From contig JAZNNE010000022.1 of NCBI GenBank assembly GCA_045580125.1, positions 30 through 64,029 on the forward strand: DNA of 64,000 nucleotides. The letters run 5' to 3'. The notes below the pieces were generated by a model. It was given only the letters and a program-made list of their open reading frames with translations. It was not told the origin of the DNA and ran no database searches. A program made the position numbers and the translations under genes. This DNA is from Faecousia sp. Its GTDB lineage: Bacteria > Bacillota > Clostridia > Oscillospirales > Oscillospiraceae. Every line of letters begins with the position of its first letter. Position 1 is the first letter of the stretch. Shown piece after piece: positions 1 to 60,026 of the stretch.

Positions 1-625
1 CCCGTTTGACATAGTGGTACAGAATGTCTTCCGTTTCCACAATTTTTTCTGCCTTCAGGCAGACCTTATAGGTCTGCATTTCGTCCTCGTAGACCTGTCC
101 TACGGGGAAACGGATATTTTGCCATAGTTCTTTGCGGTAAATTTTGCTCCAAAGCGCGACTTGATTTGTATAATCGCCACCCTGCTTGGTAAACATCCGC
201 CGCACAAAGCCTGCGCCATCCAGAAACTTCACACCATCGCTTCTGTCGCTTCCGTTTAAAGCAGAAGCACGATCATGCTGGCATTGGACAATGTCCGCGT
301 TATGAGTTTCTGCTAACGTCATCAGTCGCTGGAACATATCTTTTTCAACAATATCGTCAGAATCCACCCAACCGATATACTCGCCCTGCGCGGCATCCAA
401 GCCCGCATTTCGAGCGGCAGATACGCCGGCATTTTTCTGATGAATCACCCGCACGCGGCTATCCGCAGCAGCGAAAGCATCACACAGTTCTGCGCTGCCA
501 TCGCTGGCACCGTCATCCACCAATATCAATTCAAAATCCCGAAATGTCTGGTTGAGAACAGACTGCACCGTCTCCTCCAGCCATTGCCGCACATTATATA
601 CGGGGATGATAATGCTTAGTTTCAC
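1..625 (-). CDS. Glycosyltransferase family 2 (partial, runs off left edge; not in ORF track)
   Basis: Manual translation from GTG at 625: MKLSIIIPVYNVRQWLEETVQSVLNQTFRDFELILVDDGASDGS...AARNAGLDAAQGEYIGWVDSDD, a GT-A/GT2 N-terminus with a DxD motif. Confidence 0.9.
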   Translation of the reverse strand, partial: MKLSIIIPVYNVRQWLEETVQSVLNQTFRDFELILVDDGASDGSAELCDAFAAADSRVRVIHQKNAGVSAARNAGLDAAQGEYIGWVDSDDIVEKDMFQRLMTLAETHNADIVQCQHDRASALNGSDRSDGVKFLDGAGFVRRMFTKQGGDYTNQVALWSKIYRKELWQNIRFPVGQVYEDEMQTYKVCLKAEKIVETEDILYHYVKR

Positions 626-58018: not shown

Positions 58019-58218
58019 TCGAGCGCTCCTTTAAACAAATAACAGCAAAAATTATTGTTTTGCTACTATGATCATAATGTTTGAATGATTATTTGGCTAC
58101 TATTATACCAAATACATTTAAAATAACAAGTGTTTTTACTCAAATAGTATTATTTTAAAGATAATTGTCAGATTTTGAAAAGTACAAGTACCGAAAACAA
58201 GTCGTTTGGGTGTTTTCT

Positions 58219-58463
58219 TTGGTTGCGGAAGGCACACTCGAACCTGCGCCCTGTTGCGGTGCCCGATAAAATCTTCGGGCTTACGCTTTTCCTCGGTTTT
58301 ATCGACCGCTGCCACTCGCTCGCCTTCCTTCCTCCGCCACTGGCGGCGGTCGGCTCGCTCCCCCAACGAGCTACGCTCGTCGGTCTCATAACCCGGAAGT
58401 CGCTTGAAGCTTGCTTCATAACCAAAGAAAACACCACCCGTTTGGGTGGTGTTTTCTTTGGTT
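58219..58463 (+). repeat. tRNA-Met-derived structured repeat, copy 1
   Basis: Inverted degenerate tRNA 3' end, nested hairpins, GCTCGTCGGTCTCATAACCCGGAAGTCG...ACCA, then a 20-bp-stem hairpin. Confidence 0.7.
58420..58463. terminator. Perfect 20-bp-stem hairpin following the tRNA fragment
   Basis: AACCAAAGAAAACACCACCC-gttt-GGGTGGTGTTTTCTTTGGTT. Confidence 0.8.
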
Positions 58464-58503
58464 GCGGAGGCAGGACTCGAACCTACGACCTCCGGGTTAT
58501 GAG
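58459..58503 (-). other. 3' half of tRNA-fMet (anticodon loop to CCA); putative att core at a genomic island boundary
   Basis: Reverse complement CTCATAACCCGGAGGTCGTAGGTTCGAGTCCTGCCTCCGCAACCA; the D-arm and 5' acceptor strand are absent. Confidence 0.88.
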
Positions 58504-58615
58504 TAAACGCGCCCAGGTATATTTGTACTTTTTGTGCTGCATTCCAACGCATTTATTATGATTCGGGTATGTTTGATCAGCATTTACACTATGGAAATTA
58601 GAAAATAAAGATGCG

Positions 58616-58635
58616 TTGGCGTCGATATTGGCGTC
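58616..58635. repeat. Direct repeat TTGGCGTC x2 (12-bp period), possible integrase arm-type site
   Basis: gcgTTGGCGTCgataTTGGCGTCaa, about 113 bp inside the att-like core. Confidence 0.55.
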
Positions 58636-58672
58636 AAATGATAGCGCATCTGCTTTTTGTGGCATTCACTGT

Positions 58673-58930
58673 TCAATCGCCAAATTCTGCTTTGATTCTT
58701 TCATTAGCCTTCGCATCCAAACCCTTAGGCAAAAGTTTCAGATCATCTTCCTTGATTGCAATTGTTGCAATATTATCCTTATCGCCGTACTGTGGAAAAC
58801 AAACAAGATGCATTCCGTTAATGCCGCGAGGATCGCAAATCCACCCTTGCATCCCTTTGTGAACGCCTTCTTTCGCATACTTATTTTTTTCAACTATAAG
58901 TTCTACACAATCCATTTCCTTCATTATCAT
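58673..58930 (-). CDS. Small conserved protein (DUF4926-like, putative immunity protein)
   Basis: MDCVELIVEKNKYAKEGVHKGMQGWIC...ATIAIKEDDL; family resemblance recalled from memory. Confidence 0.7.
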   Translation of the reverse strand: MIMKEMDCVELIVEKNKYAKEGVHKGMQGWICDPRGINGMHLVCFPQYGDKDNIATIAIKEDDLKLLPKGLDAKANERIKAEFGD

Positions 58931-59104
58931 TTTCCTCCATAAGGCGTGTTCAACTTTATTTTTCCGCCGGCTTCAACCATCCAGCTGAAGGCATTCAAAA
59001 CAATGTATAATACCCTCTACCTGATGTACCCACTTTACCCAATAATCGCACCAAAATTTCTTTCTTGTGGCAAGCGGGGCATTCCATATTTTCTCAATTA
59101 GCAT
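58927..59104 (-). pseudogene. Internally deleted toxin-like gene
   Basis: GGAGG RBS and ATG 59104 give MLIEKIW...HCFECLQLDG*; the +1 frame continues WMVEAGGKIKLNTPYGGK* with an ATGA overlap into 58930. Confidence 0.6.
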
Positions 59105-59256
59105 CCTATCCCTCCAAAACGATAATAAGAACAAGTTGTTCTCCTAACCTTAGCTGGTGAAAGATACTAAGTTGCACAAAATATACAACTATCATAAACT
59201 TTGAGATAGGAAAAATCAATACCTTGCAATTTGCCTGACCGGAAGATTTCCTTTCT

Positions 59257-59482
59257 CGTTTCTGCAGCCCGGTTTGCGGTGCCCTATATTTTCGGCGGCA
59301 GGCAAAGCCGCCTTGAAAATATAGACCGCTGCACTGCGCTCGCCTCCTTCCTCCCGCCACCGGCGGCAGTCGGCTCGCTTACCCAACGAGCTACGCTCGC
59401 CGGTCTCACAACCCGGAGGTCGTTTGAATTCTACTTCATAACCAAAGAAAACACCACCCAAACGGGTGGTGTTTTCTTTGGT
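59257..59482 (+). repeat. tRNA-Met-derived structured repeat, copy 2
   Basis: Colinear with 58237-58462; GCTCGCCGGTCTCACAACCCGGAGGTCG...ACCA followed by the same hairpin. Confidence 0.7.
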
Positions 59483-59642
59483 GCGAATGTTCTCAATGGA
59501 TTCGAGAAAATAAACATAAAACAACCGACAATCACACATATATTCAAACCGTATCTAATTGGCACATTGGTGTTTTCAAAAATAGAGATATAAAATGTAT
59601 ATACAAACTAAAACGTATATACGAGTCAAGGAGGAAAACACA

Positions 59643-60026
59643 ATGGAAAAATTACCGAAATTTATTACTGACAAAAGAACGGGACTCCGGTATGAATTAT
59701 GCGGTGATTATTATATCGTCGCCGGTGAGGACGAGCCTGAACGAGAGCCAATCGGCATGTGGGGTCAATGGCATTTAAAGCATATTCAAAAACACAGTAA
59801 AGCGTTTTATAACAAAATGCTAAACGAGCATACTCTTTATGATTACCTCTTACAGTTGAATTGCGATGCCGAAGACACCTTTAATCGTTTGGTTAAACAA
59901 ATGGCCAAGCGTGAGGATGTGACCGAAAACATCAAAGCAGATAACCAAATGGATTGGGTTGGTAAGATGAATAATATTCGTCAAAGGGCAGCAGAAATTG
60001 TTTTTCTGGATTTGATTTATAACTAA
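59643..60026 (+). CDS. tnpV: TnpV-family protein
   Basis: GLRYELCGDYY, PIGMWG..HL, L..YL..LN.DAE, MAKREDVTENIKADNQMDWVGKMNNIR..A.EIV...LIY. Confidence 0.88.
   Translation: MEKLPKFITDKRTGLRYELCGDYYIVAGEDEPEREPIGMWGQWHLKHIQKHSKAFYNKMLNEHTLYDYLLQLNCDAEDTFNRLVKQMAKREDVTENIKADNQMDWVGKMNNIRQRAAEIVFLDLIYN

Follow-up and report, generated by a model that had tools for sequence, protein, structure and literature searches.

The window analysed here is the whole stretch of 64,000 nucleotides taken from a contig of Faecousia sp. (JAZNNE010000022.1), and towards its right end it harbors two direct repeats of about 210-230 nt (58250-58462 and 59270-59483), whose alignment revealed about 87% identity over the 165 nt lying outside an inner hairpin. 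Each repeat, of about 225 bp, is a composite made up of a constant core of 113 nt (58250-58362 and 59270-59382), which is the only part common to a whole family of elements and which is hereinafter referred to as the module, and of the debris of a tRNA-fMet gene and its palindromic terminator. The repeats are not a product of chance, because their folding beats that of dinucleotide shuffles (z of -7.4 and -8.4 for the two copies) and because the core recurs with E-values of 1e-23 to 1e-34 in searches with a covariance model, R1, that was built from six copies. The comparison of the family members makes it rather probable that the module is a mobile element that enters folded targets directly after GG. 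The two copies in the window, W1 and W2, and their variable hairpins (P2) are the following:

58250..58362, minus strand: module copy 1 (W1), 113 nt; R1 match of 122 bits, E 1.4e-32; delimited by alignments and junction analysis
58264..58304, minus strand: variable hairpin P2 of W1, of "type i", with many copies in other genomes (e.g., loci L022, L025-L027, L046 and L048)
59270..59382, minus strand: module copy 2 (W2), 113 nt; R1 match of 119 bits, E 1e-31; delimited by alignment and fold
59284..59324, minus strand: variable hairpin P2 of W2, of a sequence type absent from the other 55 copies examined

Read on the minus strand, W1 runs from GG^GGGAGCGA (a caret marks a junction) through domain I, the linker GAGCGAGTGGC and domain II to AACAGG^G, with boundaries that are uncertain by 1-2 nt owing to runs of G; its domain I is a long hairpin with the cap GCCGCC-AGT-GGCGG, and its domain II consists of GCGGT/ACCGC around the variable hairpin. 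W2 has the same domain I and the same helix P1, and the apex of its domain II is replaced en bloc (CTATATTTTC...GAAAATATAG). An initial annotation of the window had described two copies of a tRNA-derived element in which the structure was conserved and the stem sequence changed. Both copies are indeed present, as are the outer GCGGT/ACCGC helix, the CCGCC-ACN-GGCGG hairpin and the long terminal hairpin, and the inner stems pair perfectly both in copy 1 (CGATAAAA/TTTTATCG, at 58264-71/58297-304) and in copy 2 (CTATATTTTC/GAAAATATAG, at 59284-93/59315-24). As for the changed stem, the pairing is kept, but what distinguishes W1 from W2 is the exchange of the whole apical hairpin of domain II as a block, with no stepwise compensatory change between them, and true covariation appears only at the level of the family.

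Fold and spread of the module

The covariation test was carried out on 55 copies with 500 shuffles, and with the pair partners slid as a control. Standard pairs occupy 89.8% of the cells versus 69.5% after shuffling, double-sided changes occur at 25 of the 30 pairs, none of the 500 shuffles reaches any of the observed measures, and sliding the partners abolishes the signal; at the second position of helix P1, C-G, G-C, U-A and A-U pairs are all found. On the purine-rich strand, which is the minus strand of the window, the module opens with GG^GGAGCGA and closes with AACAGG. Domain I is composed, in this order, of GC, a tandem G.A/A.G, three covarying base pairs, another tandem G.A/A.G, two base pairs, an internal loop and the cap GCYGCC-NGT-GGCRG; the linker GAGCGAGTGGC then leads to domain II, where GYGGT/ACCRC surround a 3-nt bulge and a stem with a variable apex. 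This apex exists in about five recurrent sequence types, shuffled against the variants of domain I; that of W1 is of the commonest type, and the type of W2 was not found elsewhere.

The better-folding strand is the purine-rich one in 47 of 51 copies, an outcome that G-richness alone favours, and G.U pairs are rare, amounting to about 1% of the cells on either strand. The sense strand of the module is probably the minus strand of the window, that is, the strand opposite to the one first read, and at the D-loop sites described below it is co-oriented with the tRNA genes. The small open reading frames (ORFs) over the repeat are not conserved, and a protein-coding repeat was rejected on this basis.

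It is also probable that the module is transcribed. Gut metatranscriptome assemblies contain many short contigs matching it, with summed depths of 100-700, and contigs with depths of hundreds cover the P2 hairpin of W1 (58264-58304); these contigs carry no strand and may derive in part from DNA carry-over, so that they speak for presence only. In faecal DNA assemblies, summing the depth over the module gives about 100-fold the value of the flanking single-copy DNA.

As to the spread of the family, a BLAST search with copy 1 against its own genome (1.54 Mb in 90 contigs) recovered a 64-nt core at three other loci, corresponding to a unit of about 113 nt beside tRNA-Leu(taa), where two units stand in tandem, beside tRNA-Leu(tag) and, as a diverged copy, elsewhere. 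R1 retrieved eight copies from this genome (E <= 1e-3) and over 140 from its relatives, where 25 of the 61 genomes have the module, each in up to 17 copies; tandems with a period of 165-190 nt and positions at contig ends are frequent there. Among the matches listed, confirmed copies belong to metagenome-assembled genomes (MAGs) named as Faecousia sp., Oscillospiraceae, Clostridia and Ca. Avilachnospira. The cultured Vescimonas fastidiosa MM35 harbors 24 strong copies on its 861-kb replicon NZ_AP023416.1, together with 13 weaker ones that belong to a sister family, related to the module by the first hairpin alone. The members of this "family B" are about 118 nt long (e.g., 417162-417280 and 410063-410180 of the same replicon) and keep the GCYGCC-AGT-GGCRG hairpin with its flanking AAGCG motifs; their second domain differs.

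The matching to known families relied on Rfam 15, at the gathering score and, within 58100-59600, at E<=10, and on ARAGORN, which called 0 tRNA genes in the window. No Rfam family reached the gathering score, and no tRNA or tmRNA match appeared in 58100-59600 even at E<=10, where the sub-threshold matches concern the terminator hairpin only; tRNA, tmRNA and any Rfam family were therefore rejected as identities of the element, and an HDV-like, hatchet, twister or other ribozyme and YrlA are unsupported, given no Rfam signal even at E<=10. A phage collection yielded one weak partial match only, and no description of the module was found in the literature searched. The family is apparently undescribed and present in multiple copies in gut Oscillospirales, that is, in Faecousia, Vescimonas and other Oscillospiraceae. 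The further copies and the covariation that the initial annotation had proposed to look for were both found, and no described family in Rfam corresponds to them. Its idea of a miniature, gene-less, structured and multi-copy element linked to tRNA genes is borne out by the R1 copies, by the covariation and by the tRNA flanks treated in the next section.

Insertion sites and target debris

The analysis of the junctions revealed that every copy, in the sense orientation of the module, starts directly after GG; these dinucleotides lie in the D-, anticodon and variable loops of tRNA genes, in the loops of repetitive extragenic palindromic (REP) hairpins, in 5S rRNA and in spoIVB. Flanks derived from tRNA genes were recognized by BLAST in 22 of 42 copies. 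In the commonest break, the left flank comprises tRNA positions 1-19/20 and the tRNA continues in the right flank from 21/22, so that the module enters at G18G19 of the D-loop. Copies were also found in the anticodon loop of tRNA-Pro (CTTTGG^), after GTGG near the acceptor/D junction, in T-arm regions and, at locus L044, in the variable loop of tRNA-fMet (GAAGG^T). The identity of the flanks changes from site to site and includes tRNA-Leu, -Pro, -Ser, -Trp and -fMet, 5S rRNA, spoIVB and REP hairpins.

The comparison of empty and filled sites gave GATGG^GT^GAGCC for spoIVB, TTTGG^T^AGAGC for the tRNA D-loop and CCCGGG^CA^GTCGCC for 5S rRNA, in the latter case on the antisense strand; for spoIVB and 5S rRNA, the two targets outside tRNA genes, the empty counterpart lies in the genome of the window. 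In the 800 kb examined of the Vescimonas replicon, about 22 of the 25 full-length copies listed lie in REP loops: the empty hairpins (n=49) read GATG-T(G/A)GG-CATC and the filled ones GATG-TGG[GGAGCG...CAACAGG], followed by AT, AC or GT and by CATC. The remaining three are located in another repeat (flank CATCCG), with GT, GA or AA at the junction (GA twice). The insertions into Vescimonas REP loops are clean and of 117 nt, with no cargo, no target duplication and no tRNA-like flank. Across all sites, terminal inverted repeats and target-site duplications are absent; the T after GG is lost in the tRNA and spoIVB targets, and 1-3 variable nucleotides stand at the 3' junction.

The REP hairpins in question belong to a GTAG-tagged family (e.g., GGGCGGATG-TGGG-CATCCGCCCCTACRA, at 24190-24230 of contig C75 of the genome of the window, G000), which is shared with V. 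fastidiosa (NZ_AP023416.1). About 50 CCCCTACRR sites occur in the former genome, and in Vescimonas the loops of this family are the main landing site of the module. The copies of family B lie inside REP hairpins, too (GGGCGGGG...CCCCGCCCCTAC).

At tRNA sites, the interrupted copy is always a partial duplicate adjoining an intact gene. The order is native promoter, tRNA positions 1-19, module, tRNA positions 21-33..47, a spacer of 20-40 nt and a whole tRNA, sometimes amplified in tandem. The module-bearing pseudo-tRNA-Leu(tag) of locus L011 (G000:C44, ~430-450) has the anticodon TCG instead of TAG, probably through decay. A sister genome shows the like for spoIVB: after the intact gene come a 1.4-kb cassette of two genes, the module and the displaced last 119 nt of the gene (78% identity). 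This cassette (L198, G032:C115, 9813-12180) lies in spoIVB at the region of the catalytic-serine codon and encodes a DUF6883 protein and an 89-aa protein, the latter homologous to the product of 58673-58930 of the window; spoIVB remains intact because the cassette supplies the last 119 nt in a copy of its own, 78% identical. With M for the module, the layouts a-M-b'-X-a'-b and, for tRNA-fMet at L044, a-b'-X-a'-M-b are those that a single-crossover integration of a unit carrying a module-interrupted target copy would give. Our interpretation is that, in essential targets (tRNA, spoIVB and 5S), only events keeping an intact copy beside the interrupted partial one would survive, whereas REP loops, being dispensable, would require no rescue and would show clean insertions. 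Such a survivorship would produce both the arrays of pseudo-tRNA, module and intact tRNA and the tRNA-like flanks.

The other features surrounding the copies in the window are these:

58196..58249, minus strand: second, more decayed tRNA T-arm/acceptor/CCA remnant (58220-58249) with a partial terminator (58196-58219), forming the 3' flank of W1
58363..58421, minus strand: target wreck on the 5' side of W1; BLAST match to tRNA-Met of 28 nt at 93%, antisense to the module sense strand
58422..58461, no strand assigned: palindromic bidirectional terminator hairpin of the tRNA-fMet remnant, with an 18-bp stem, recognized from sequence and fold; generic terminator-like sub-threshold Rfam matches only
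58459..58503, minus strand: 3' half of tRNA-fMet, from the anticodon loop CTCATAA to CCA, without the 5' half; no ARAGORN call
58673..59134, minus strand: two small ORFs (85 aa and 53 aa) between W1 and W2; the 85-aa product has a homologue in the spoIVB cassette of the sister genome
59383..59483, minus strand: W2 flank homologous to that of W1, with an inverted tRNA-fMet fragment (anticodon triplet CAC) and a copy of the terminator

W1 lies after GCTCGTCGG^T of the anticodon stem of tRNA-fMet and, as the initial annotation had noticed, between two minus-strand tRNA 3' ends (~58220-58249 and 58459-58503). Its 5' wreck contains, on the minus strand, an inverted segment of tRNA-fMet (~22-48, CGACTTCCGGGTTATGAGACCGACGAGC), then GT and then a direct AGCTCGTTGG that ends in GG at the start of the module. 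On the plus strand, 58372-58402 matches positions 22-48 of tRNA-fMet (28 nt, 93%, with the intact tRNA-fMet of L044 as comparison), so that the resemblance on which a "decayed tRNA-Met body" had been proposed is real; however, this body is a piece of the tRNA-fMet gene hit by the element, in inverted orientation, and the ACCA at its end comes from the outer arm of the terminator, where it complements TGGT in a palindromic stem that includes the CCA end of the real minus-strand tRNA. The element does not, then, "borrow" tRNA sequence: the tRNA-like parts are remains of the target, vary by site and are absent from the clean REP insertions of Vescimonas.

An inverted copy of the left flank of the target itself, followed by a short direct copy, directly precedes the module on its 5' side at W1 (58363-58421), W2 (59383-59444), L041, L042 and L044; in the window this takes the form of the palindrome CCGACGAGC-GT-AGCTCGTTGG. 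Fold-back and template switching are possible origins of this arrangement. The 18-bp stem of the terminator is identical at 58422-58461 and 59445-59483, with the 4-nt loop inverted (gttt vs aaac), which looks like a flip by recombination inside a perfect palindrome.

Since no 5' half is present, the tRNA-fMet 3' half at 58459-58503 is read as an att-type (attachment-site) remnant at the edge of the mobile island to its right. This island carries TnpV and a TIR-domain protein pair; the TnpV-family protein (PF14198, E 7e-33) is encoded at 59595-60026, directly to the right of W2, and the match supports a Tn4451-like or other mobile island to the right of 58504, for which no recombinase was found on this contig. 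The same composite of inverted tRNA-fMet and module is found at W1 and W2 and, in two further families of the order, at L041 and L042, and hence it moves as a unit, probably together with islands for which tRNA-fMet is a hot spot. Metagenome contigs (runs X36 and X2) join 58207 to 58459 with 13 other letters in between and represent a form without W1 and its tRNA wreck.

Probable mobility of the module and rival explanations

On balance, we favour the idea, which we hold to be probable though far from certain, that the module is a mobile but non-autonomous element, resembling IS607 in its GG signature and dependent on an enzyme that acts in trans. Such an element would integrate immediately 3' of GG in or beside the loop of hairpin-forming DNA, with neither terminal inverted repeats nor target duplication, and would leave 1-3 variable nucleotides at one junction. 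Its two hairpins would probably be needed for recognition in a single-stranded folded form, which might be the reason why they covary. Three features that do not suit IS607 itself, namely hairpins that covary, the bias towards hairpin loops and the inconstant nucleotides at the junction, indicate that the intermediate is a folded single strand and that the mechanism is an undescribed one.

The interpretation is favoured by the number and spread of the copies, the covarying fold, the GG junctions, the empty and filled sites, the lack of any conserved protein gene within 1.5 kb of 34 loci and of any Rfam family, the presence in metatranscriptome assemblies and the parallel with IS607. Several observations weigh against it. 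No ORF bounded by module ends was found in the genome of the window or in 800 kb of the Vescimonas replicon. The reverse transcriptase domain PF00078 is absent from G000, G009, G012, G014, G017, G018, G023, G024, G028, G031 and G032, TnpB (PF07282) from all module-rich genomes, and the IS110 transposase (PF01548) from 14 of the 15 module-rich genomes tested and from the Vescimonas replicon. Strong matches to IS200 TnpA (PF01797) are patchy, occurring in 9 of 25 module-bearing versus 5 of 36 module-free genomes; R1 found no module near IS200 copies, whose ends are unrelated to it. The serine recombinase domain PF00239 is absent from the module-rich G014, G023, G032 and G001, and elsewhere no match adjoins a module; the MAGs are 66-94% complete, which weakens the serine-recombinase and TnpB negatives. 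Tyrosine integrases, being present in all genomes, are uninformative. Moreover, the nucleotide lost after GG and the 1-3 variable nucleotides at the 3' junction are predicted by no standard serine, Y1 or DDE mechanism, the inverted target duplications beside the module (W1, W2, L041, L042 and L044) are left unexplained, and hairpins that covary would be superfluous in a double-strand mechanism of the IS607 type. For Vescimonas, it is also conceivable that REP and module move as one unit. Lastly, mobility is deduced from the comparison of sequences, and no transposition event was directly observed.

A number of known entities were tried and set aside. A TnpB omega-RNA was rejected on the absence of TnpB, an IS110 bridge RNA on that of the DEDD transposase, and an IS200-derived element because the IS200 ends are unrelated and Y1 transposases do not track the module. 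An element resembling a short interspersed nuclear element, a group II intron or a retron lacks a reverse transcriptase in the 11 module-rich genomes named above, despite junction nucleotides that look untemplated and truncated copies. The boxes of an integron attC site (RYYYAAC...GTTRRRY), as read from the sequence, with no search for IntI, do not occur in the module, whose 3' CCGCAAC has no GTTGCGG partner on the same strand; a classical miniature inverted-repeat transposable element is at odds with ends (GGGGAGCGA... and ...CACCGCAACAGG) that are not inverted repeats and with clean sites that show no duplication.

Other explanations of the same data were weighed. It might be that the module is first and foremost a functional structured RNA, transcribed from the purine-rich strand (minus in the window), with its fold maintained by selection on the RNA and its spread being secondary; a stable leader-derived small RNA, a protein-binding RNA and a small ribozyme from the leaders of tRNA operons are the candidates. 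The strong covariation, the two conserved tandem G.A/A.G motifs of domain I, which are typical of RNA, and the better folding of the purine-rich strand all fit this idea, as do the abundance of the module in metatranscriptome assemblies and the modules at D-loop sites, which are co-oriented with the native tRNA promoter and downstream of it and must therefore be transcribed. We nevertheless regard it as unlikely: the copies in 5S rRNA and spoIVB are antisense and those in REP loops lie on either strand of the replicon, the scarcity of G.U pairs on both strands suits a DNA hairpin or a two-strand constraint better, up to 37 copies per replicon with precise boundaries are the behaviour of a selfish element, and the folding of a G-rich strand is trivially better, just as the contigs are strandless and open to DNA carry-over. 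In the initial annotation, the RNA was imagined as a tRNA-Met mimic or decoy, or as a substrate of RNase P/Z at ACCA. The 28-nt match to the anticodon-arm region of tRNA-fMet on the plus strand, followed by ACCA and the terminator, speaks for it, but this idea is already largely refuted and in our view extremely improbable, because the tRNA-like parts belong to the target and are no property of the family: all the other sites have different sequence in their place, neither a tRNA nor a tRNA-like RNA was called, acceptor stem and T arm are missing, the anticodon triplet differs between the copies (CAT vs CAC) and ACCA mirrors the terminator stem.

The module might otherwise be the att or arm recombination site of a family of small integrative cassettes and islands, with a tyrosine or serine recombinase of the island or of the host as the mobilizing enzyme and with solitary copies as scars or gene-less cassettes comparable to cis-mobilizable elements (CIMEs) or integron attC sites. 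W1 stands exactly at the edge of a mobile island (that of TnpV and the TIR-domain protein pair) beside the tRNA-fMet 3' half, the spoIVB cassette of the sister genome is bounded by a module and carries a replacement 3' end, a classic signature of integrative elements, the two layouts given above fit a Campbell-type integration, and tandem arrays occur. On the other hand, the Vescimonas insertions are clean, without cargo or target repeat, no recombinase is linked to the module, the orientation of the cargo relative to it is not fixed (window vs L198) and the R'/R'' boxes of attC are absent, so that we consider this alternative improbable as well. Still less probable, and indeed very unlikely, is a spread without any dedicated enzyme, by replication template switching or microhomology-mediated repair at forks stalled in hairpin-rich, highly transcribed genes. 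It would accord with the lack of a partner enzyme, with the GG microhomology, the small deletions and the extra nucleotides at one junction, and with the partial direct and inverted target duplications, but hardly with the identity and precision of the ends across more than 100 copies in unrelated places, or with some 22 near-identical clean Vescimonas insertions at the same loop position.

A bolder idea, which appears doubtful but deserves mention, is that the module represents an undescribed class of tiny structured mobile elements of gut Firmicutes that would home to GG within loops formed by single-stranded nucleic acid on folding (those of REP hairpins and the D, anticodon, variable and T loops of tRNA), through a mechanism outside the known transposase families. 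A host enzyme hijacked to act on folded single-stranded DNA, or an RNA- or DNA-catalysed step, might then be at work, and the same mechanism would account for the untemplated nucleotides at the junction and for the target being copied again, both inverted and directly.

If the module does move, it would rank among the smallest structured mobile DNAs known from bacteria, and its target rule would be an unusual one, i.e., GG in hairpin loops and especially the universally conserved G18G19 of the tRNA D-loop. The module explains many of the pseudo-tRNA arrays and contig breaks in MAGs of gut Clostridia, and composites of this kind should not be labelled as tRNA-like RNAs in annotations. V. fastidiosa MM35, which is cultured and has a complete genome with 24 near-identical copies, makes the question directly testable, and the discovery of the enzyme could reveal a new way of recognising folded DNA targets.

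Comparison with known systems

Structured intergenic repeats such as the enterobacterial repetitive intergenic consensus/intergenic repeat units (ERIC/IRU) and the Rickettsia palindromic elements are non-coding, multi-copy sequences of ~100-150 nt that are found in host transcripts and may sit within genes; they are imperfect palindromes or have terminal inverted repeats. No transposase is known for them, and none of them is known to target GG in tRNA D-loops or REP loops. The module resembles them in size, fold and lack of coding capacity; its sequence is unrelated.

With CIMEs and tycheposon-like satellites, the module shares the location at tRNA genes, the partial tRNA repeats, the tandem arrays and, in the case of spoIVB, cassettes with a replacement piece of the target. 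However, the repeats of CIMEs are the att core itself, whereas here a foreign, structured module of 113 nt interrupts the partial copy and also enters non-tRNA hairpin loops cleanly, without cargo.

The palindrome-associated transposable elements (PATEs) of the IS200/IS605 group and the REP/RAYT (REP-associated tyrosine transposase) systems are likewise small, gene-less and based on hairpins, have no terminal inverted repeats or target duplication, insert 3' of a short motif and keep their structure by compensatory change; the module also coexists with GTAG-tagged REPs in the same genomes. Hairpins are found at both ends of the module and the insertion is 3' of GG, but the two hairpins are unlike each other and the junction nucleotides vary. 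Moreover, the target is only GG in a loop, and variable junction nucleotides would be unexpected from a precise single-strand "peel and paste".

IS607 carries GG at its target and at either terminus, lacks terminal inverted repeats, does not duplicate its target and has direct repeats in sub-terminal position (PMC6188088). The module shows insertion at (G)GG, GG at both termini and neither inverted repeats nor target duplication, and its GAGCG motif, present 3-4 times, recalls the direct sub-terminal repeats; the 1-3 extra variable nucleotides at the 3' junction make the match inexact. It differs from IS607, whose serine transposase TnpA is usually accompanied by TnpB, in being gene-less and only 113 nt long, with no IS607-type TnpA/TnpB tracking it, in having covarying hairpins, which the double-strand substrate of a serine recombinase does not need, and in its targets, which are hairpin loops that lose a base and acquire one junction variable by 1-3 nt. 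All in all, among the systems compared, it is with the published properties of IS607 that the junction signature of the module agrees most closely.

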